From a phage: a DNA stretch of 64,000 nucleotides. The first letter of the stretch is position 1. Every line of letters begins with the position of its first letter. The notes beneath the pieces were generated by a model that was given only the letters and a program-made list of their open reading frames with translations, was not told where the DNA came from and ran no database searches. The stretch lies in the NCBI GenBank assembly GCA_018995085.1, contig GCA_018995085.1_3936.1; one strand, 5' to 3'. Below, piece by piece: positions 2,504-47,744 of the stretch. The position numbers were made by a program, and so were the translations under genes.

Positions 2504-3034
2504 ATGAACAAGTTCAAAGCTATCAACTATATTCGTTCAAATGCTGTAATGTCTAAGCCTGTTAAAGATACCTACGAATTTCGCTGCAACGGTGTACACT
2601 TCGCAACCATCACTAAATCAGAAAACGGGGCTTATTACGTTCATCGTCGTAATGTTTCGACCGTTGTAGTCTCTCACTTTATGCAAGCTGTAGCAGAATT
2701 ATTACCGTTATTCTTAGAGATTTACTTAGATGAGTGTAAAAACGTTCGCAACCATGTTAAAAACCTTTTAAATGGTTATAAGATGGCTTATGAACGTTCT
2801 ATCAAGAATCTTAACAAGTTCTATAAAGCCCCTGAAAATACTGTATCAATAGCTTATGATGTAAGCGGTGAAATGGCCAACCTCTCTAATGTAGAACAAA
2901 TTAGCCTTTATGATTTACGTCCTAGTGGCTACTCTAAGACTCTCGGTGAAGGTTTATCCTTCAATATCAAGAACTTAGAAAAAACTTTAAAAGATATTGA
3001 AAAAGATATTGACGAGACAATCAAAAGTCTGTAA
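2504..3034 (+). CDS. hypothetical protein
   Basis: ORF track; preceded by conserved cassette. Confidence 0.65.
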   Translation: MNKFKAINYIRSNAVMSKPVKDTYEFRCNGVHFATITKSENGAYYVHRRNVSTVVVSHFMQAVAELLPLFLEIYLDECKNVRNHVKNLLNGYKMAYERSIKNLNKFYKAPENTVSIAYDVSGEMANLSNVEQISLYDLRPSGYSKTLGEGLSFNIKNLEKTLKDIEKDIDETIKSL

Positions 3035-3096
3035 ATTGTCAATCAACGGGGGATAACCTCCCCCACTAAACAAAATCCTAAACTGGAGTTATCAAG
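3009..3096 (+). promoter_or_regulatory. early promoter-stem-loop cassette, copy 4 (TTGACG-N17-TAAATT; hairpin variant GGGGGA..TCCCCC)
   Basis: promoter overlaps stop codon of upstream gene. Confidence 0.6.
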
Positions 3097-3360
3097 ATGG
3101 AAAACGTAGAATTAACCACAATTTTACAAATTGCAACCGACAAAGAAGATGTAGCATTATTCCACCGTATCGAAAGCGATTTGTTCAATGGTGAAATCAT
3201 TAAAGAATCTTACGAAGTTGTCGGATTCAAAGATGGTAAAGCATTTGGCTTTTTTGACCTCGACAAAAGCAAAGCGGTTACAATGTACGATGTTCTATCT
3301 TGTGAAATTCTGACAAAATACAACGAAAAAAGGCTTGCAACCTACGCCAATATGCAGTAA
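3097..3360 (+). CDS. hypothetical small protein
   Basis: ORF track; preceded by cassette variant. Confidence 0.6.
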   Translation: MENVELTTILQIATDKEDVALFHRIESDLFNGEIIKESYEVVGFKDGKAFGFFDLDKSKAVTMYDVLSCEILTKYNEKRLATYANMQ

Positions 3361-3428
3361 ATTACTAATCAACGGGGAGGGAATGACCTTCCCCACTAAA
3401 TAAAGTCCTAAACTGGAGATTCTAAATT
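3335..3428 (+). promoter_or_regulatory. early promoter-stem-loop cassette, copy 5 (TTGCAA-N17-TAAATT)
   Basis: same leader hairpin and SD. Confidence 0.6.
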
Positions 3429-3677
3429 ATGTCAACTATCCGCGTAACTGTTAATGCTTATGGCTGCCACCAACTTGATGCAAAATTCGATATCGGTGGA
3501 ACAGATAATACCTTTGACCTTATCAAAATGCTGATTCAGCAGGTGATACCAGATTATAACCCTACTGATGACTTCTGGAAAGATGCCGTAAAAGAAGCCA
3601 TAAACGAGGAATCTCACTACCATTATTGGGGTGACTTGATTATCTCTCTGTACTACAGCAAACAAGGTTACAACTAA
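3429..3677 (+). CDS. hypothetical small protein
   Basis: ORF track; preceded by conserved cassette; followed by hairpins and terminator. Confidence 0.6.
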   Translation: MSTIRVTVNAYGCHQLDAKFDIGGTDNTFDLIKMLIQQVIPDYNPTDDFWKDAVKEAINEESHYHYWGDLIISLYYSKQGYN

Positions 3678-3715
3678 TCGACGCAGCGGGGCTAAATAGC
3701 CCCAGATACCTTTAC

Positions 3716-3738
3716 AGCCCCTTAAATGGGGCTTTTTT
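3716..3738 (+). terminator. Rho-independent terminator (AGCCCC-ttaaat-GGGGCT + TTTTTT)
   Basis: hairpin plus T6; preceded by a second GGGGC..GCCCC hairpin at 3688-3703. Confidence 0.7.
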
Positions 3739-3739
3739 A

Positions 3740-5340
3740 CGTCTATAAAGAACCCTTTCCTTTCCTTCCCAGAATCTATCCCACTAATTCGATAGAGTCT
3801 ATCCCGTACCTTAAAAAGCAATAACTCTATAGTCTACTCTATAACCTCTTATCAAATCAACTTAAATAAAAGCCAATAACCCCAGAAAGGGGATGGCCCA
3901 TTAAAACGCTCTATAAAGCTCTATAACAGCCTTATCAACCTAACTTAAGCAATCATATTAACCCACTCTAAAAAGCCCTTTATAGAGCTTCCCAGAGCCT
4001 TAAAAGAATCTTATAAGGGTGAAAGCTTATAGGCTGATTAGTATCTTGTGAATGGTTAAACAACCCCCTTGCTAGTCACTAAAAAGCATGTTATAGGGGC
4101 TATAAAGTTACTTCAAAGTTACGTAAAAGAGGCTATAAAGTTACGTAAATGCTAGCCCCCTTAACATTTTCTTAACAATTTCTTAACAATCCCTACATAG
4201 TTATGCTTGTTAGCAACTTGTTAGCCCCTTGTTAAATCTCTGTTAAGACCACGTAAAAGCCTTGTAAGAACCTTTGGCATAGCCTTAAAAGCCCCTGTAA
4301 AGCCCTATAAAGAGCTATCCATACAGTTGAGGGGTAAATACTAGGAAGAGGCTTAAAAGAACTTATAAGGGGCTATAGAGAGCTTTTAAGAGGTATGTTT
4401 AGAGAATCACTAAGAAAGGAAGGGAACGATAAGAAAAGAGATAGTGACCATGTTAATAGCTTGTTAAAAAGATTAAACACTTGTTAGAAACTTGTTAATT
4501 ATCTTAACAAAATAACTCTTTAAAATTAACTTGTCAGCTCTTGTTAGTCATCTGTTAAGATTCTGTAAAACCTATTCAGCACTTGTTAGAAAACTGTTAA
4601 GCTCTTGTTAGTTCTGTTAAGAAACTGTTAAGACCTTTGAAGAGTTGTTAAGAGTTTGAGAGAGTTGTTAAGAGATTGTTAAGGATATTTTAAAATTTTG
4701 CAAAGTACTTGTAAGGGAGCTGTTAAGGGCTACCAAGCAGATATACATCTTCTACAGATATTTTTCAGTTCCTTCAAAGACCCTAAAAAATGACTTGATA
4801 GCCCTATTTTATAAAAATTTTAAAATTCTGAATAATTACCTAGACAGTCTTTTAAAAATACAGGTAGAAACAGGCTTATAAGATACCTTGTTAGTACCGT
4901 GTTAGACCTTGTGAGATAAGGTCTGTGAAGATATTCCTGTTAAGTTTGTTAAAACAGTCTATATAGAGGCTTAGTAGTACCTAGTGAACACCTATAGAGG
5001 GTATCATAGCTAACCTAGAGATTAAGAGGTGTATAGGGGCTTCTAAGAGGGTATAGAGAGATGGTTAAGGTGATTGTATAGGTTGTTAAGAAGGATTGTT
5101 AGAAGAGTGTTTAGAGGGCTATTTAGAAGGGTTATACAGAGGGCTATTAAGACCACTAGATAGTTACTAAGATACTATATAGTACTATATAACTATATAG
5201 AGAGTAAGATTAAGAAGGTTGTTAAGAAGGATAGATATTTTATTCACATATGATGGTGACCCAGAGGTTGGGACAACCGATAAAATTTTATAAAAATATA
5301 AATTTCGTAAATTTTACTCAATAAAAAGCCCCCAATTAAG
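3740..5340. repeat. 1.6 kb ORF-free region with three families of short phased direct repeats
   Basis: CTATAAAG/CTTATAAG family (3744-4400); CTTGTTAG/CTGTTAAG family at roughly 10-12 bp spacing (4170-4730); TATAGAGG/TTAAGAAGG family (4960-5230); AT-rich tract 4740-4860. Confidence 0.8.
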
Positions 5341-5357
5341 GAGGCTCTTAAGATATT

Positions 5358-5951
5358 TTAAATCAGTGTTTCCAGAACTGTTTTTAGTGATGACTTGGTT
5401 GTCTGATAAAAATGAGTAAAGCCATTGTTATTATCGAATACCTGCATCATGATATCATCTCCCTTGATTGGGTACACTCGGATATCATAGTGGAAACCAT
5501 TAAAGACACAAGAGCCATTACAGAATGCACTAAAGTCATCCACTGAGATATACTCTTCATGTCCTGTGATTTTTATACAGATACCTTTACTCGGTCTCTT
5601 AGGATTAATATCTTCCATCACAGACATATTCTGTCCACCAAGAGATACCATAGTGACCACTTTACGGTTCTTCTGTCTAAAGTACATCTTAACTTTCTGT
5701 AAAGTATCTTCATAGAACGGATAAGACTTCTCTACAAAGATTCCTTCAAGTGGCTCTTTACCGTTTTTAACTTCTCTGATATGTCTTACTGAGAAGACAA
5801 GCTGCTCTAGTATGTCAAGGCTTTCTTTGGATAATGCTTCTCGAACATCACTCCAGTCAAGAACTAGGTAGTTACCTTCAACTTCTTTTAAGTTATCTTT
5901 TTCCATAGCTATCACACCGTTATCGTAAAACTTGGTAAGCTGGTACTGCAA
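5358..5951 (-). CDS. hypothetical protein (start may be internal Met near 5906)
   Basis: ORF track; overlaps upstream ORF by 32 nt at the listed start. Confidence 0.55.
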   Translation of the reverse strand: MQYQLTKFYDNGVIAMEKDNLKEVEGNYLVLDWSDVREALSKESLDILEQLVFSVRHIREVKNGKEPLEGIFVEKSYPFYEDTLQKVKMYFRQKNRKVVTMVSLGGQNMSVMEDINPKRPSKGICIKITGHEEYISVDDFSAFCNGSCVFNGFHYDIRVYPIKGDDIMMQVFDNNNGFTHFYQTTKSSLKTVLETLI

Positions 5952-6384
5952 ACTTGTTGCTATTGTTCCTAATAAGGTCTTCTTCTGTTACTAAGAATGT
6001 AATCCCACATAAGTGCGTATAGTGGCTGTCATACTCGAATATTTTAAGTAAGTATTTACCATCATGATAAACAGATTCTACTACACCTTTTGCAACAATC
6101 TTTCCAGTCTTGAAGTCTTTAAGAGGGTATGTATTACCAACTTTAGGGACTGTTTTCACTTCAGGTTCTTTTAGCTTCTCACTAGCTTCTACATCACCTA
6201 GTAAGTTAGAACTTTCAAAAGCTCTGAATCTCATATAAGCTTCTGAACATTCCCAGATAAAACAATGTACAAGAACCTTAGCAGCATGTCTTGAGCAATT
6301 CAACTCATCACAGATTTCTTTGTACATTTCATCTTTAGTTGAATTGGTAAGCATTGCTTTTCGAACTGTTTCTTTAATTTTCAT
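5920..6384 (-). CDS. hypothetical protein
   Basis: ORF track. Confidence 0.55.
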   Translation of the reverse strand: MKIKETVRKAMLTNSTKDEMYKEICDELNCSRHAAKVLVHCFIWECSEAYMRFRAFESSNLLGDVEASEKLKEPEVKTVPKVGNTYPLKDFKTGKIVAKGVVESVYHDGKYLLKIFEYDSHYTHLCGITFLVTEEDLIRNNSNKFAVPAYQVLR

Positions 6385-17880: not shown

Positions 17881-18017
17881 TTAGCAGATTACTTAGACGA
17901 CCTTAGCGGGTCTTCCTGTAGGGAGGTGGTCTGTATCTCATGTTTTCCAGAACATGTAAATAATCTGAGAAGGGGCTTTACAGTGTTGAGATAATACGGT
18001 AAGCTTCGAATTATAGT

Positions 18018-18100
18018 ATGGGACGATGTTAAGACTCTAAGGCATGAGCAACGGCTTCCAACACCGTTTCAAAGGGGTTCAACTCCTCCGTCCCATGCCA
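18018..18100 (+). tRNA. tRNA-like gene, probable Trp (anticodon CCA) with enlarged D region
   Basis: acceptor ATGGGAC/GTCCCAT perfect, loop TTCCAAC, 83 nt. Confidence 0.45.
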
Positions 18101-18113
18101 AAGTCTTATTAGG

Positions 18114-18203
18114 GGTAGGTAGCGGCTAATGGTAGCCAAACTGTCTTGAAAACAGTTGCCACTGTAGAGATACGGTGAGGGTTCGACTCCTTTACTTACC
18201 GCC
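18114..18203 (+). tRNA. tRNA-Ser (anticodon UGA), type II
   Basis: anticodon stem ACTGT/ACAGT, loop CTTGAAA, 20-nt variable arm. Confidence 0.7.
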
Positions 18204-18459
18204 TAATAAGATTTACTCCGTCCATGCTTGTTCGCATTGTCGGTTTATCCCTCGTGTATTGTCGTACACACTGATAAAACACCTAGTAGGTGTCACGGAG
18301 AAGAGATAATATCAAGCTCTCTAAAGGTTCTAGTCACCGGATTAAACAAGACTATGCAAAGACCTTTTTAGGTCTTTTTAGAGGGCTTCTAAGGTTATTA
18401 GTCGCTTGTTGTGGAACCTTGTTGCTTAGGTTCTTAGAAGTTCTCTAAAAAGATTTAAT

Positions 18460-18538
18460 GGGAGATTGACGGCAACTTGGTAGACCTATCTCGCTTAGAA
18501 CGAGATGCTTGAGGGTTCGAATCCCTTGTCTCCTACCA
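18460..18538 (+). tRNA. tRNA with UAG anticodon loop (Leu-type anticodon) but short variable arm
   Basis: anticodon stem TCTCG/CGAGA, loop CTTAGAA, D-loop AACTTGGTAG, 4-nt variable region. Confidence 0.5.
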
Positions 18539-18545
18539 AATTAAT

Positions 18546-18621
18546 GCAGGTGTAGCAAAATGGTTATGCGGCTGACTCTTAATCAGTAAGACGATGGGTT
18601 CAATTCCCTCCACCTGTACCA
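18546..18621 (+). tRNA. tRNA-Lys (anticodon CUU)
   Basis: loop CTCTTAA; T-arm region similar to the UUU copy. Confidence 0.55.
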
Positions 18622-18627
18622 AACAAT

Positions 18628-18703
18628 GGGGTCATAGTTTATATGGTTAAAATTCGAGTTTTGCAAACTTGGGAACTGAGTTCAATTCTCAGTGACTCCA
18701 CCA
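18628..18703 (+). tRNA. tRNA-Ala (anticodon UGC)
   Basis: loop TTTGCAA; G3:U70 wobble pair in acceptor stem; T-arm CTGAGTTCAATTCTCAG. Confidence 0.7.
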
Positions 18704-18709
18704 ATTAGT

Positions 18710-18784
18710 GCATCCATAGTTTAAACGGGAAAATTACAGTCTTCCAAACTGAGGTTGAGGGTTCGATTCCCTCTGGATGCTCCA
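18710..18784 (+). tRNA. tRNA-Gly (anticodon UCC)
   Basis: acceptor GCATCCA/TGGATGC perfect, loop CTTCCAA. Confidence 0.7.
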
Positions 18785-18791
18785 AATTAAT

Positions 18792-18867
18792 GCTCCTATC
18801 GTATAATTGGTTATTACGGTTGCCTTGTAAGCAACTTATCAGGGTTCGAGTCCTTGTGGGAGCACCA
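18792..18867 (+). tRNA. tRNA-Thr (anticodon UGU)
   Basis: anticodon stem GTTGC/GCAAC, loop CTTGTAA. Confidence 0.7.
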
Positions 18868-18963
18868 ATTCAGAGGTCAAGTGAAAGACCGCTTTGAGTC
18901 AACTGAAGACCGTAACAAATTCCACGGAGTTGAGTTAGCGGCACAACTCCAGACCTCTTTCAT

Positions 18964-19038
18964 ACTCGCTTAGTTTATATGGTAAAACATCACCCTTACA
19001 AGATGAAGAAAAAGGTTCAAGTCCTTTAGTGAGTACCA
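18964..19038 (+). tRNA. tRNA-Val (anticodon UAC)
   Basis: loop CTTACAA, T-arm AAAGGTTCAAGTCCTTT. Confidence 0.6.
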
Positions 19039-19039
19039 T

Positions 19040-19117
19040 GTTCCAGTATCCCAATTGGCAGAGGATGCAAGCTCAAACCTTGTATTAGTGACGGTTCGAA
19101 TCCGTCTTGGAACACCA
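19040..19117 (+). tRNA. tRNA with CAA anticodon loop (Leu-type anticodon) but short variable arm
   Basis: acceptor GTTCCAG/TTGGAAC, loop CTCAAAC, 6-nt variable region. Confidence 0.5.
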
Positions 19118-19122
19118 ATTTT

Positions 19123-19198
19123 GCAGGATTAGTTCAAATGGAAAGAGCAACAGTCTACGAAGCTGTTAATAGGGGTTCGAATCCCTTATCCTGCGCCA
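19123..19198 (+). tRNA. tRNA-Arg (anticodon ACG)
   Basis: acceptor GCAGGAT/ATCCTGC perfect, loop CTACGAA. Confidence 0.65.
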
Positions 19199-19215
19199 GA
19201 TAAAAAGGTGATACT

Positions 19216-19458
19216 ATGCAAACATTAACAGTAGTTGAACATGAAAACTGTGAGAGTATTGAGTTTGTCAGGGTCATTGGTGTTGAACACCACATTTTCT
19301 TAAAAGTTGGATACTTATGTGACCCCGCTAGAGTAGAAAGATTTATACGTGATTGTTTTGGTGGTAGACATCTGAAGAGTGTTATTTTTGAGACAGTTTT
19401 ACCAGAAGGTTTAGAAACGAATAATAACATTTACCTCCTTACGAGGATTAGACAATGA
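19216..19458 (+). CDS. hypothetical small protein embedded in tRNA array
   Basis: ORF track; SD-like AAAGGTGA upstream. Confidence 0.45.
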   Translation: MQTLTVVEHENCESIEFVRVIGVEHHIFLKVGYLCDPARVERFIRDCFGGRHLKSVIFETVLPEGLETNNNIYLLTRIRQ

Positions 19459-20012
19459 GATACTTAAAGTATGCTTCATGGATTTTCTTAGCTTTGTTAG
19501 AGCTATTTGCAGCAATCTTAGCAGTTATCTTAGCACCTTTCGTAGTTCCATTCTACAGTGAGAAGAAAGGACATCTACCTTTCGGGTTCAGATGGATGGA
19601 AACTTATGACAACCCAATTGATGGTGATGAAGGTCACGTTAAAAGATGGGCTAATATTAGATGGATTGGTAAACTAGGTGTCTACATGCAAAGAGTCGGA
19701 TGGCTCTGGAGAAACAAAGCTTATAACTTCTCTTACCATGTATTAGGGAGAGATGTAAAAGATGTTACTAAGTGGAAAGGTAATATCAACGTAAGTTCTG
19801 ACCCTGAAGATAATCAGACAGGTTATCTCCTAATGTGGAACAGTAATGCTTGGGGATTATTCGCTTTTATCCCATCAATTAAAATCTTTGGTAAACAATT
19901 TTACTGGAGAATTTATATTGGATGGAAACTAAAAAGTGTTGTCCCAGAAGAAAGAGCATTCTCAAGGGAAAGAGTTATGTTGGCATTCTTTATTCATCCA
20001 CTGAGAAAGTAA
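19455..20012 (+). CDS. putative membrane protein embedded in tRNA array
   Basis: N-terminal hydrophobic helix (WIFLALLELFAAILAVILAPFVVPF). Confidence 0.5.
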   Translation: MRYLKYASWIFLALLELFAAILAVILAPFVVPFYSEKKGHLPFGFRWMETYDNPIDGDEGHVKRWANIRWIGKLGVYMQRVGWLWRNKAYNFSYHVLGRDVKDVTKWKGNINVSSDPEDNQTGYLLMWNSNAWGLFAFIPSIKIFGKQFYWRIYIGWKLKSVVPEERAFSRERVMLAFFIHPLRK

Positions 20013-20030
20013 AGATTTAAAGGGGATTAG

Positions 20031-20106
20031 TTTACAAGGTTAAAACCTCGGTCTTTGAAATCGAAGAAGTTGGTTCAATTCCAACATCCCCCGCCAATGC
20101 TCCATT
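20031..20106 (+). tRNA. tRNA-Gln (anticodon UUG)
   Basis: loop CTTTGAA, T-arm GTTGGTTCAATTCCAAC, unpaired 1:72. Confidence 0.6.
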
Positions 20107-20108
20107 AC

Positions 20109-20187
20109 TCCAATTGGCAGAGAGGCCAGACTTAAAATCTGTGTTATGTATCGGTTCGAATCCGATATGGAGTACCAAATTTAGCGG
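20109..20187 (+). tRNA. tRNA with UAA anticodon loop (Leu-type anticodon) but short variable arm
   Basis: loop CTTAAAA, T-arm ATCGGTTCGAATCCGAT, 7-nt variable region. Confidence 0.5.
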
Positions 20188-20192
20188 TATAG

Positions 20193-20268
20193 CATAACTG
20201 GCAATGCAGCAGTCTCTGAAGCTGTCTTATTAAGGTTCAAATCCTTATGCCGCTGCCACTTCTAAGGA
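20193..20268 (+). tRNA. tRNA-Gln (anticodon CUG)
   Basis: loop CTCTGAA, D-stem GCAT/ATGC. Confidence 0.55.
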
Positions 20269-20289
20269 TTCTTACGAGAGTCCTTAAAT

Positions 20290-20365
20290 GTGGCCTTATC
20301 ATAAATGGTAATGACCCATGCTGTGAACATGGTCTATACGGGTTCAAATCCCGTAGGTCACCCCA
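20290..20365 (+). tRNA. tRNA-His (anticodon GUG)
   Basis: anticodon stem CCATG/CATGG, loop CTGTGAA, discriminator C. Confidence 0.65.
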
Positions 20366-20370
20366 ATTTA

Positions 20371-20445
20371 TAGTCCAAGTAGCTTATATGGTTAAAGCGC
20401 GTGTCTGAAAAACATGAGAAGAGGGTTCAAATCCCACTGGACTAC
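20371..20445 (+). tRNA. tRNA-Phe (anticodon GAA)
   Basis: acceptor TAGTCCA/TGGACTA perfect, loop CTGAAAA. Confidence 0.65.
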
Positions 20446-20463
20446 CAATTTCAAAGGTGCTTA

Positions 20464-21198
20464 ATGAAAGAGATGACAGAACAAGGTAAGGAGATTTTTA
20501 ATCTCTTAAAAACTGGTAAAGGGTTTTCTAACCCCCTTATTACTGGTGCAGCAGTTCTCGGTGGAACCGTAGCTGCCTCCACATCACTTGTAAGCTCTAT
20601 TAGTTCTGTATCAGACCCTACAGTAAAAGATAAGCTTGTTGCTGCTGGACTTACAACAGTTCTGCTTAACAGCTTTACCACGAGTCTGACAAGCACTACA
20701 TCAACTACCAAAACACTGACAGATTACGGTCAAAAGTCCATTGATGAGTTTTCATCACGTATGCAGGTAGCAAAAGGTTATTCTAATGTTATGGGTGCAG
20801 CAGGTGAACAAGTTGGCTGTACACCATTTAGTGGTATTATGGGTGTTGCTACAGAGTATGGTCAAAAAGCTATTGATACGATTAACAGTGCACTAGACGG
20901 TGTTAATGATGTATTAAGTGATTTACAAGACGCTATTGACAAAGGTCTTGATACTATTTCTGATTTAGCTAACCAAGCTGTTAGTAAGATTAATGAAGGT
21001 ATCTCGAAGATTACAGCTTATGCAGATGAAGTTGTGCAGATGATTGAAGAAGAAGCTGCCCTTATTGCAGAGTACCTTAAAACGAATATCAATGGGTTCT
21101 TAGCAGGTATCTTACCAGACTGGTTTGATGATGCTTGTAAAACTGGTGTAATTGACACTATTGCAACACCAGAAATGAAGAACGCATTACAGAAATAA
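20464..21198 (+). CDS. hypothetical Ser/Thr-rich protein
   Basis: ORF with internal ATG at 20464; the track start at 20401 lies inside tRNA-Phe. Confidence 0.55.
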   Translation: MKEMTEQGKEIFNLLKTGKGFSNPLITGAAVLGGTVAASTSLVSSISSVSDPTVKDKLVAAGLTTVLLNSFTTSLTSTTSTTKTLTDYGQKSIDEFSSRMQVAKGYSNVMGAAGEQVGCTPFSGIMGVATEYGQKAIDTINSALDGVNDVLSDLQDAIDKGLDTISDLANQAVSKINEGISKITAYADEVVQMIEEEAALIAEYLKTNINGFLAGILPDWFDDACKTGVIDTIATPEMKNALQK

Positions 21199-21199
21199 T

Positions 21200-21292
21200 G
21201 GAAGATTAACCCTAAAAGGTAAGGGAGCAGTTTGCTAAACTGCCAGTAGCTGAGAAATCGGTGTACCAGTTCAAGTCTGGTATCTTCCTCCA
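21200..21292 (+). tRNA. tRNA-Ser (anticodon GCU), type II
   Basis: acceptor GGAAGAT/ATCTTCC perfect, loop TTGCTAA, long variable arm. Confidence 0.7.
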
Positions 21293-21296
21293 ATTT

Positions 21297-21372
21297 GAAT
21301 CCGTGACAGAAATGGCTATGTGCCTGTCTGCAAAACAGGTTTATAAGGGTTCGAGTCCCTTCGGATTCTCCA
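21297..21372 (+). tRNA. tRNA-Cys (anticodon GCA)
   Basis: acceptor GAATCCG/CGGATTC perfect, anticodon stem CCTGT/ACAGG, loop CTGCAAA. Confidence 0.7.
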
Positions 21373-21594: not shown

Positions 21595-21795
21595 ATGAGC
21601 GAGACCGTTTATAAAGAACTTTATGAAGCTAATAAGAAGCTAGAATTTATGCAGAATACTATCATGGCAATTGCAGACAGATTGTCTGTAGCAACAGGTA
21701 TTGATATTAAAGAAGCATCTATGGATGCACTTCTTGATGCTGTTGATGCAAAGTTCGAAGTTAAGAAAGAAGAGACTGCTACAGACTCTGAATAA
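21595..21795 (+). CDS. hypothetical small acidic protein upstream of terminase
   Basis: ORF track; 66 aa, too small for confident small-terminase call. Confidence 0.45.
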   Translation: MSETVYKELYEANKKLEFMQNTIMAIADRLSVATGIDIKEASMDALLDAVDAKFEVKKEETATDSE

Positions 21796-21801
21796 TTCTA
21801 T

Positions 21802-23418
21802 TTGCGGAGGCGCTTAATGGACTTAAATGCTGTTAAGCAGAAGCGAGTGGAAGATGTTAGGAAAGTCCTAGCTGGAGAGTTGGGGCTTTCTGATGAAGTA
21901 AAAGAAATTATTAAATCATTCGGTAAAGACCCCTCTAAATTCCTTCCAACTCAAATTCTGACTTTATTAAGATACACACCAGACCAAGTTCGCCTTATCT
22001 TTAAATTGATGACTGATAAGAATTATGTAGCCCCTCAGCCGGGTTCTCAAGAGGTCTTTTTAAATACTAATGCTGACTTGGTTCTTTATGGTGGTGCTGC
22101 TGGTGCTGGTAAAACTGCTGCATTGTTAATGGACTCTCTAAGATTTATTGAAGACCCTAACTATAATGCTGTATATTTCCGTCGAAATACAACACAGCTA
22201 CAAGGTGGTTTATGGCCTGCTGCAAAGAAACTATTTGGTAAGTTTGGTGGGATTCCTCACGAGCAGAAAATGACTATCACATTCCCTTCTGGGGCAACTA
22301 TCAAGTTTACCTACCTAGAACTTGAAAAGCACGCTGAAGGTCATCAGGGTATTGAGTATTCAGCCATTTACTTTGACGAAGGTACACACTTCTCTGCTTC
22401 ACAGATTTCATACCTACAAACTCGTCTACGTTCTGGGGCTGAAGGTGATTCATACATGAAGATTTCTATGAACCCAGACAGAGACCACTTTATTTACGAT
22501 TGGGTAGAGCCATTCTTAGATGAAGAAGGTTACCCAGACCCTGAAAAGTGTGGTCGTATTCGTTGGTATGTAATGAATGATGGTGTTATGGTTTCTGATT
22601 GGGAGAGAGACAAGATTCTTGAAATGTTTCCTCTTGAGATTCCTCAAACATATACATTCATCTCTGGTACGATTGATGATAACCCAATTCTTGACTTCTT
22701 AGAACCAAAATACCGTGGTAAGTTGGAAAACAACACCCCTGTAAACGTTGCAAGACTTCGTTTCGGTAACTGGAAGGCTCGTGCAGAAGGTTCAAACTAT
22801 TGGCAAAGACAATGGTGTGAAATTGTTGATTCACTCCCAGAAGATGTATTTGATGTTAGAGCATGGGACTTAGCAGCAACTTTACCATCGGAGATTAACC
22901 CTAATCCAGACTGGACAGCAGGTGTTAAGATGGGTAAATCTAAAAAAGACGGTTGCTATTATATCATTGATGTAGTAAGATTTAGAGATAGACCCTCTGG
23001 AGTCGAAACACAAATTAATTTGACTGCTGAAAGTGACGGTAAGCGAACTGGTATTTTTATCCCTCAAGACCCAGGCGCTGCTGGTAAATCCTACGCAACA
23101 TCCCTCATCAGGAAACTTGCCGAGAAAGGTTATCGAGCAAGAGCCAAACCAACAAATAAAGATAAAGTTACCCGCTTTGCGGGATTTTCTGCTGCTTCTG
23201 AAGCTGGACTTGTAAAAGTCTTGAGAGGTAGTTGGAATGAAGCTTACTTTCAAGAGCTTGAAGGCTTTTGTGGCGATGGTAAAACTAAAGATGACCAAGT
23301 GGATGCTACCAGTGATGCTTTCAACAGTCTTAACGAAGTTAAATTATTCAAGCCACCATCAATGGGTGCTCACACAGATTTAGTGAGAGGAAACCCATAT
23401 GAGGGGCTTAGACGTTGA
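21802..23418 (+). CDS. terminase large subunit
   Basis: Walker A VLYGGAAGAGKTAAL; size 538 aa; position ahead of portal; likely true start is ATG at 21817 after GGAGG. Confidence 0.85.
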   Translation: MRRRLMDLNAVKQKRVEDVRKVLAGELGLSDEVKEIIKSFGKDPSKFLPTQILTLLRYTPDQVRLIFKLMTDKNYVAPQPGSQEVFLNTNADLVLYGGAAGAGKTAALLMDSLRFIEDPNYNAVYFRRNTTQLQGGLWPAAKKLFGKFGGIPHEQKMTITFPSGATIKFTYLELEKHAEGHQGIEYSAIYFDEGTHFSASQISYLQTRLRSGAEGDSYMKISMNPDRDHFIYDWVEPFLDEEGYPDPEKCGRIRWYVMNDGVMVSDWERDKILEMFPLEIPQTYTFISGTIDDNPILDFLEPKYRGKLENNTPVNVARLRFGNWKARAEGSNYWQRQWCEIVDSLPEDVFDVRAWDLAATLPSEINPNPDWTAGVKMGKSKKDGCYYIIDVVRFRDRPSGVETQINLTAESDGKRTGIFIPQDPGAAGKSYATSLIRKLAEKGYRARAKPTNKDKVTRFAGFSAASEAGLVKVLRGSWNEAYFQELEGFCGDGKTKDDQVDATSDAFNSLNEVKLFKPPSMGAHTDLVRGNPYEGLRR

Positions 23419-47228: not shown

Positions 47229-47744
47229 TTATTTAACCTCAAAAACTGGTTCAAGAACCAATATAAAGTCTACACAGTCATCTTCTTCATCCAGAATACC
47301 ATCAAAGTTCTTAGGAACGAAGTCGAAGAGGCTCATCACAAAACAGTCAGAAGTAACCTTTATAGTTCCTCCCATGTTCTCTACAGTTAACACTGTACGA
47401 CTTTCTTTTACCTCCCTCAGAAGATTACCCACAAAGTCATCTAAGAAGTACTTCATCAATGGCTTAAAACCTTTAGGATAATCTGTGCCAGAGTATGTTT
47501 CAATCTGAGGCACAAGCTTAACATTTATACTAGTCTTTGTTAAGAACGTGTTAGAGAACATGCTATCAGGTAACTTACAAACAGTCTTTCCAGTATCTTC
47601 ATGTTCAATCTCAACAAAACCAGCTTCGTCGCCACATGTGACTATTTTAAAAGATGCTTCATTATCACCCTGTGAAGCCATAAACTTTTTAAGCATCGTT
47701 TTAAGGAAATCTGCATGAGCATCTTGTAAGTAGATATCAATCAT
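47229..47744 (-). CDS. hypothetical protein
   Basis: ORF track. Confidence 0.55.
   Translation of the reverse strand: MIDIYLQDAHADFLKTMLKKFMASQGDNEASFKIVTCGDEAGFVEIEHEDTGKTVCKLPDSMFSNTFLTKTSINVKLVPQIETYSGTDYPKGFKPLMKYFLDDFVGNLLREVKESRTVLTVENMGGTIKVTSDCFVMSLFDFVPKNFDGILDEEDDCVDFILVLEPVFEVK

Follow-up and report, generated by a model that had tools for sequence, protein, structure and literature searches.

The closest described counterparts of the locus analysed here are the direct terminal repeats (DTRs) of Felixounavirus phages. For UAB_Phi87, a DTR of 608 bp was determined experimentally through the Bal31 sensitivity of two restriction fragments and subsequent run-off sequencing (Bardina et al. 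2016, PMC4837284), and its printed sequence runs from AACATTTTCTTAACAA to GTTAAGGGCTACCAA and is also quoted as ending GATGTTAAGGGCTACCAA (PMC4837284). Terminal repeats of 581 bp were assigned to the Felixounavirus Pr103Blw by PhageTerm (PMC8303462), the announcement of E9, also based on PhageTerm, describes the genome as linear and DTR-bearing, and for Felix O1 short terminal repeats were inferred from the difference between the sequence and the size estimated by PFGE (PMC3185647). A tree of large terminases places the Felix O1-type DTR phages in a clade (PMC4837284), and no small terminase has been annotated in these phages (PMC3185647, PMC4837284). The Felixounavirus DTR literature found provides the length and sequence of the repeat and does not describe an internal architecture of phased motifs.

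More distant comparisons are provided by phages in which short repeated words lie in or beside the sites of genome processing. DTRs of the T7 type derive from concatemers with a single repeat per junction, through boundary cuts on opposite strands followed by strand-displacement synthesis. The T7 sequence contains the word CCTAAAG in three copies inside the 160-bp terminal repeat and in 8-11 copies beside it, at a spacing of 13 bp. The arrays beside the terminal repetition are called SRL and SRR and, to our knowledge, the function of the T7 short-repeat arrays is not settled. The R sites of lambda cosB and the pacL and pacR boxes of SPP1 are multi-site recognition regions for the small terminase.

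The locus compared with these systems lies in a phage assembly of which a single stretch of 64,000 nucleotides was analysed (hereafter, the window). The region at 3740-5328 is non-coding and is flanked by convergent gene blocks, each of which is closed by a terminator-like hairpin. The last gene of the rightward block (3429-3677) is followed by a Rho-independent terminator at 3716-3733 on the plus strand and the last gene of the leftward block (5358-5951) by another at 5329-5343 on the minus strand; the homologous places in KhF3 are both annotated as terminators. An initial reading made from the sequence only (the sequence-only reading) had described a 1.6-kb stretch free of ORFs between convergent blocks, and this description holds, as the longest ORF on either strand of 3822-5357 measures 37 aa. 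A mechanical ORF of 129 aa on the minus strand (3432-3821) overlaps the left edge of the region by 82 bp and is antisense to the last plus-strand gene.

Phage identity and the probable position of the chromosome ends

The genome is that of a Felixounavirus, a Felix O1-like myovirus. The segment at 3700-5360 matches 256 phage records at ~80-93% identity, nearly all of them Felixounavirus or Mooglevirus, and the window displays the Felix O1 gene order plus an island of 25 tRNAs. The counterpart gap in Felix O1 sits between ORF23 (plus strand) and ORF24 (minus strand), and the DTRs of the described Felixounavirus phages are likewise positioned between homologues of these two genes. A T5-like injection-stop region was considered for this locus and dropped after the taxon had been identified as Felixounavirus.

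In the hit tables, several records start or stop exactly at the homologue of position 4155 and contain a second copy of the segment that follows. Four records with exact direct terminal repeats at both ends (E9, 580 bp; ECP2307, 592 bp; SeKF_63, 613 bp; NBEco005, 651 bp) start at the homologue of G4155 and end at the homologue of C4734. The repeats of all four begin with GCCCCCTTAACA and finish with GTTAAGGGCTACC, and outside of the repeats AAGCAGATATACA follows the left-end copy and ...GTTACGTAAATGCTA precedes the right-end copy. The end-matching records span four countries, with E9 originating from the Philippines, SeKF_63 from Canada, and ECP2307 from China.

Transferred to the window, the DTR coordinates are 4155-4734, and these delimit the TGTTAAG array described below and nothing else. 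This segment is present as a single copy in the window and as two exact copies in the records of relatives. The UAB_Phi87 locus aligns with the region at 87% identity and its experimental DTR corresponds to positions ~4163-4736. The boundary boxes of UAB_Phi87 span 614 bp and the run-off ends are 8 and 2 bp apart from the record-based ends, which reconciles the two lengths (614 - 8 + 2 = 608) and leaves the exact cut positions uncertain.

The feature is homologous to an experimental DTR and its boundary sequences fall at the start and end points of linear records, which assigns it to the Felixounavirus DTR, a class already published. We place the probability at about 85% that the region represents the junction of both physical chromosome ends, with a 580-bp DTR (4155-4734; four records, UAB_Phi87, and Pr103Blw) collapsed to one copy in a permuted assembly and with the ends assigned through ~90% homology. 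Permutation and collapse are indicated by the single copy of the segment, which has unique DNA from one genome end on its left and from the other on its right; the true genome length would thus be the assembly length plus ~580 bp. Among the options listed in the sequence-only reading, the coincidence of the array with the DTR of the four records and of UAB_Phi87 bears out the one in which assembly has placed a terminal-repeat boundary in the interior. The comparison with related phages that had been proposed as a check revealed that the region is conserved and that their ends map to the homologues of 4155 and 4734.

The Felixounavirus DTRs in UAB_Phi87, Pr103Blw, and Felix O1 are homologous to the segment at ~87-96% identity and possess the same boundary boxes. 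They differ in length, with 567-658 bp in relatives compared to 580 bp here, through indels of 10-11 and 21-24 bp, and in placement, with the repeats of relatives' records at the ends and the one copy in the window internal.

Phased repeats, boundary boxes, and constraint

All of the repeat families that had been noted from the letters were found in their reported places. The word TGTTAR occurs in 26 copies on the plus strand and 4 copies on the minus strand of 3740-5328, of which 19 and 4, respectively, lie in 4155-4734. Compared with 1000 dinucleotide-preserving shuffles, 19 copies in 580 bp exceed the expectation of 1.09 ± 1.0 and the maximum of 6, and elsewhere in the 64 kb the word forms only one trivial cluster of three copies (47518-47549). 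Copies in the array are spaced by 11, 20, 22, and 33 bp and phase coherence is maximal at 10.25 bp, in agreement with the spacing of about one helical turn that had been claimed for it.

The orientation of the copies changes along the DTR. Three inverted copies (CTTAACA, 11-bp spacing, minus strand) occupy the extreme left edge at 4161-4189 and are 99% conserved among 13 relatives, and 23 direct copies of TGTTAR or TGTAAR, phased at ~10.25 bp, extend on the plus strand from 4208 to 4727, up to the right boundary. As a consequence of this opposed orientation, the path inward from either physical end meets a G/C-rich box and then CTTAACA words ~11 bp apart.

The boundaries themselves are marked by fixed boxes on the plus strand (in the sequences that follow, a slash denotes the DTR boundary). 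The left box, GCTA/GCCCCCTTAACATT (4151-4168), varies by at most three substitutions in 25 loci and can be aligned across three lineages, and the right box, GTTAAGGGCTACC/AAGCAGATATACA (4722-4747), varies by at most four substitutions in 25 loci. Besides their copies in the window, at 4151 and 4722, both boxes recur in 24 further loci, and the length of the DTR ranges from 567 to 658 bp among the loci. An additional box, GATATTTTAAAATTTTGCAAAG (4684-4705, plus strand), lies ~30 bp inside the right boundary and occurs in Felixounavirus, Kolesnikvirus, and Pectobacterium phage Arno18.

On either side of the DTR, the region would consist of unique DNA from opposite ends of the virion chromosome. 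The left flank (3740-4154), assigned to the virion right end, contains the words CTATAAAG, CTCTATAA, and CTTATAAG and a tandem duplication of 32-33 bp at 4090-4154; the copies of GGCTATAAAGTTAC at 4098 and 4131, which had been noted as a duplication of that word, are part of this larger unit. The right flank (4735-5328), assigned to the virion left end, contains an AT-rich tract (4790-4860), a TGTTAG cluster (4889-4952), a hairpin (4905-4923), and the words TATAGAG and TTAAGARG (4960-5230, with copies at 4962-5222). The tract that had been described as AT-rich does reach 75% A+T at 4740-4860, compared with 61% for the whole window, but is not exceptional for the genome, where 256 other 60-bp windows match or exceed the AT-richness of 4795-4854.

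The three parts of the region differ in their degree of constraint. Variable sites make up a fraction of 0.39 of the left flank, the most variable part of the region, 0.28 of the DTR, and 0.145 of the right flank, the most conserved part, relative to 0.35-0.45 in the adjacent genes. In Moogle-like relatives the region is 0.72-0.82 identical (right flank, 0.73-0.81) versus 0.58-0.73 for the neighboring genes. By these alignments, constraint on the non-coding DNA equals or exceeds that on the surrounding genes, and the right flank is more conserved than its neighbors; this flank probably holds further cis-acting signals for DTR processing and packaging.

Constraint within the DTR is concentrated on the repeated word. 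Identity to the window, taken over 24 distinct sequences, is 96.2% in the motif columns versus 86.3% in the other DTR columns, with a Mann-Whitney p = 8e-13 that overstates independence because the sequences are phylogenetically related. Indels of at least 4 bp in the DTR alignment, most of them within the DTR and two just beyond the right boundary, measure 8-12 bp (13 distinct events), 21-24 bp (8 events), or 48 bp (1 event), and among the events counted none measures 2-7 or 13-20 bp. On the basis of the alignment, these sizes would reflect either the maintenance of helical phase or the gain and loss of whole repeat units.

The same elements can be recognized in other lineages of the Ounavirinae. 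The record of the Kolesnikvirus Erwinia phage vEam_W_28 has a DTR of ~442 bp at its ends, with inverted copies in the left half and direct TGTTAAG copies in the right half. It shares the left-boundary box as TAGCC.C..TT.ACATT and the right-boundary boxes as GATAT.TTAA.ATTTTGCAAAG ... /..AGATATACA ... CTTCAAAG, with AGATATACA kept just outside of the DTR, and in the left flank of Erwinia phages the word CTTCTAAG takes the place of CTATAAAG. Pectobacterium phage Arno18 has the layout of vEam_W_28, and in these Erwinia and Pectobacterium relatives longer inverted arrays are found at the same place. The arrays face outward in both phages although the DNA is otherwise unalignable. TGTTAAG sites and boundary boxes, as recognized by sequence comparison, are common to three Ounavirinae lineages. 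Outside of the Ounavirinae, the inspected high-copy matches of an IMG/VR scan for three spaced TGTTAAG copies proved to be perfect tandem repeats or coding repeats without relation to the array, and they gave no sign of this type of array in other phage groups.

Proposed role in packaging and alternative functions of the repeats

By analogy, the architecture of the array has a precedent in T7, without homology. Both phages combine a short exact DTR with imperfect words of 7-8 bp inside and adjoining it, and the concatemer junctions of T7 contain one copy of the repeat, as proposed here. The words differ (CCTAAAG in T7, TGTTAAG here) and share no sequence homology, and no T7-like record was present among the DNA matches of the region. 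Further differences from T7 are that most copies here lie within the DTR, that they form two opposed, outward-facing arrays, and that the phage, a myovirus, encodes no phage RNA polymerase and has a large terminase of the T4 type (Terminase_6). The resemblance to lambda cosB and the SPP1 pac regions lies in several phased copies of a short word beside the cut site, an arrangement that suggests wrapping of the DNA on an oligomeric small terminase; the locus has such multiple phased sites beside its cut positions. Unlike the exact short DTR here, lambda and SPP1 produce cohesive ends or headful cuts, and they use 3-5 sites compared with the ~27 candidate sites of this locus.

Numerous phased sites that lie on one side of the helix and point at both boundaries, fixed boxes, and whole-turn indels together raise the possibility that the arrays are a recognition and cutting platform by which the terminase is recruited and oriented, a proposal built on these analogies that we rate at slightly less than an even chance. 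The packaging recognition site suggested in the sequence-only reading is thus compatible with the identity of the DTR, and what the repeats themselves do is a matter of inference. Under the terminase proposal, replication would produce concatemers with one DTR per junction, and a packaging complex would assemble on the helically phased TGTTAAG sites that face outward to both DTR boundaries. This complex, composed of the large terminase and a sequence-specific partner, possibly the DUF5681 protein, would cut one strand at the boundary box TA/GCCCCCTTAACA and the opposite strand at the box GGGCTACC/AAGCAGATATACA, after which strand-displacement synthesis would duplicate the repeat and supply each packaged genome with a full copy. 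The staggered-nick model is one that we infer for Felix O1-type phages by borrowing it from T7.

Cutting at the DTR boundaries would be expected of the large terminase, encoded on the plus strand at 21802-23418 (Terminase_6N and Terminase_6C; phrog_979, terminase large subunit). A candidate for the small terminase is a protein of 123 aa encoded on the plus strand at 13762-14133 (Pfam DUF5681, E = 2e-14), and what nominates it is its gene neighborhood. In two of four unrelated contigs examined, a DUF5681 gene overlaps the start of the large-terminase gene, and in the two others, which are prophage-like, it follows a ParB-methylase gene and precedes a large unannotated gene; in this genome 7.7 kb separate it from the large-terminase gene. 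The AlphaFold model (pLDDT 69) consists of a basic, glycine/proline-rich N-terminal arm and a helical hairpin; a PDB search with the protein sequence returned no match, and Foldseek against the PDB nothing below E = 2.6. The main text of the essentiality paper on the Felixounavirus Bas63 contains no result for the intergenic region or for the DUF5681 gene. It is a tentative suggestion, less probable than the terminase platform as such, that DUF5681 is a small terminase that docks on the TGTTAAG arrays and, with the DTR wrapped around it, brings the large terminase into place for nicks on opposite strands at the two boundary boxes. Similarly speculative is the corollary that the right flank would act as a second essential cis element, in packaging initiation or end replication.

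The sites may instead bind a protein other than the terminase, one that protects the ends, functions in ejection or anchoring, or belongs to the host nucleoid. Their place in the DTR would then follow from a need of the DNA ends for protection against RecBCD or for retention at the portal or tail. The sites are restricted to the two ends of the chromosome and point outward at each, and the lack of an annotated small terminase in Felix O1-type phages would be consistent with such a role. No candidate end-binding protein was identified, however, while DUF5681 is available as a candidate small terminase, and a terminase platform would account equally well for the boundary boxes and whole-turn indels, such that we regard this explanation as unlikely.

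A replication origin of the iteron type, in which the phased repeats bind an initiator and the AT-rich tract at 4790-4860 melts, either in place of or in addition to a role in the DTR, is less likely again. The superficial match to the origins of plasmids and lambda-like ori is apparent, as phased direct repeats adjoin a tract of 75-79% A+T, the right flank is more conserved than genes and likely has a cis function beyond the cut sites, and one DnaA-box-like sequence, TTATTCACA, occurs at 5240-5248. Iteron-type origins, however, are accompanied by an adjacent initiator gene or a cluster of DnaA boxes, both of which are absent here. DnaA boxes number 6 in the window versus 10.6 expected, with just one in the region, and the flanking genes encode no initiator-like domain (no Pfam domain and only PHROGs of unknown function). 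The array is also exactly co-extensive with the terminal repeat, and the AT-richness is ordinary for the genome. The origin suggested in the sequence-only reading thus found no backing. In the cumulative GC-skew analysis recommended along with it, the turning points track gene orientation and no origin-specific signal appears in the region.

It is highly improbable that the repeats lack a protein-binding role altogether and are simple sequence generated by slippage, within a DTR under no demand other than the identity of its two copies, which would serve recombination or annealing. Slippage in an 11-bp repeat array would be expected to yield indels of 10-11 and 21-23 bp, as seen here, and perfect tandem repeats of TGTTAAG do occur by chance in unrelated viral contigs. 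Such an origin is at odds with motif cores that are more conserved than the spacers, with the persistence of the word and its outward arrangement in Erwinia and Pectobacterium phages, the DTRs of which cannot otherwise be aligned, and with a run of copies that is interrupted and irregular in spacing, as slippage arrays are not.

Equally improbable is that the region encodes small proteins or non-coding RNA overlooked by the rules of ORF calling. Some GenBank records do annotate 1-6 tiny hypothetical ORFs here, but the five small ORFs of the region are intact in just 1-7 of 13 relatives. When variable sites in the alignment of 13 relatives were counted per codon phase, the substitutions were about equally common at the three positions, without 3-base periodicity, in the left flank (55/52/54), the center (52/53/58), and the right flank (26/32/28), whereas the coding flanks displayed third-position periodicity (13/9/29 and 24/8/10). 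Folding z-scores of 120-nt windows on both strands gave no consistent signal, although a small number of these windows were marginally more stable than shuffles (z down to -3), and a scan of 3000-6000 with Rfam returned two sub-threshold chance matches and none near threshold. Sigma-70 promoter-like sites occur at the frequency of shuffled sequence (10 versus 8.0 ± 2.3), none of them strong, and both adjacent operons end ahead of the region. A partition site, the remaining function raised from the letters, has nothing in its favor, with no ParA/ParB-type domains in a domain scan of the neighboring genes and Felixounavirus phages described as virulent (PMC3185647, PMC4837284).

Implications for Felix O1-type phages

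These findings overturn nothing established. The detail that appears to be undescribed comprises the outward-facing phased arrays, the boundary boxes across the Ounavirinae, the whole-turn indels, the hyper-conserved right flank, and the candidate for the small terminase. For annotators, the genome would truly begin at ~4155 and end at ~4734, and the tiny ORFs called in this region by some pipelines would be spurious. Far from being arbitrary sequence, the DTR of Felix O1-type phages consists of conserved phased sites and fixed boxes common to Erwinia and Pectobacterium relatives. For a phage group that is widely used in therapy and diagnostics, and that so far has no defined small terminase or packaging signal, the analysis offers a concrete cis element and a candidate partner protein. 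Should the proposed interaction prove true, DUF5681 would gain a function, and a packaging and DTR-processing signal would be defined for the first time in a myovirus with T7-like ends.

The non-coding right flank of the terminal repeat

Comparison with related phages shows that conservation in this neighbourhood is highest outside any gene, in the non-coding flank to the right of the direct terminal repeat (DTR; window 4735-5290). Variable sites make up a fraction of 0.145 of this flank but 0.35-0.45 of the genes next to it, and conservation reaches 97-99% in many of the flank's 30-bp blocks. Between copies of the TGTTAG word the flank carries a hairpin, GACCTT-gtgagat-AAGGTC (window 4905-4923), in which all positions are conserved. 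A single DnaA-box-like site, TTATTCACA, lies at window 5240-5248, and such sites are not enriched across the window (6 observed vs 10.6 expected).

Inserts and shared words of the terminal repeat

Some relatives, UAB_Phi87 and SeKF_63 among them, carry a palindromic insert of 22-23 bp, ATTGGTATTGTTACCAATCCCT, inside the DTR. The insert occupies more than one position among these repeats (window-equivalent ~4410, 4506/4533 and 4589, in the compared loci L006 and L017 and in IMG/VR loci) and is inverted once, and part of the difference in position may be alignment ambiguity. Separately, a terminator-like hairpin on the minus strand at window 42259, GGGGCTATAAAGCCCCTGTAAAG, uses in its loop and tail CTATAAAG and CTGTAAAG, words that also occur in the left flank and the DTR. 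Similar words are present in 57-bp repeats that have been described in Felix O1 (PMC3185647).

Genes near the genome end and around the terminase

Just upstream of the genome end, an 87-aa ORF (window 3097-3360) matches phrog_7022, a family to which no function is assigned. Neither Felix O1 nor UAB_Phi87 has a counterpart in the syntenic position, where identity is ~0. The ORF is an accessory-gene indel. Between the gene for the DUF5681 protein, a candidate small terminase subunit (window 13762-14133), and the large-terminase gene (window 21802-23418), in an interval that includes window 15796-21372, lie a Ro60-like gene homologue and 25 tRNA genes grouped in an island. Directly upstream of the large-terminase gene is a helical ORF of 66 aa (window 21595-21795).

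Related database records

GU169904.1, a 147-kb record named 'Staphylococcus phage SA1', contains this Felix O1-type region at 135379-137081 with ~89-90% identity and is probably either a chimera or contaminated. NBEco005 (MN994499.1; compared as loci L013 and L014) is annotated as circular, yet an exact 651-bp repeat occurs at both ends of the record, which shows that the genome is linear with a DTR.
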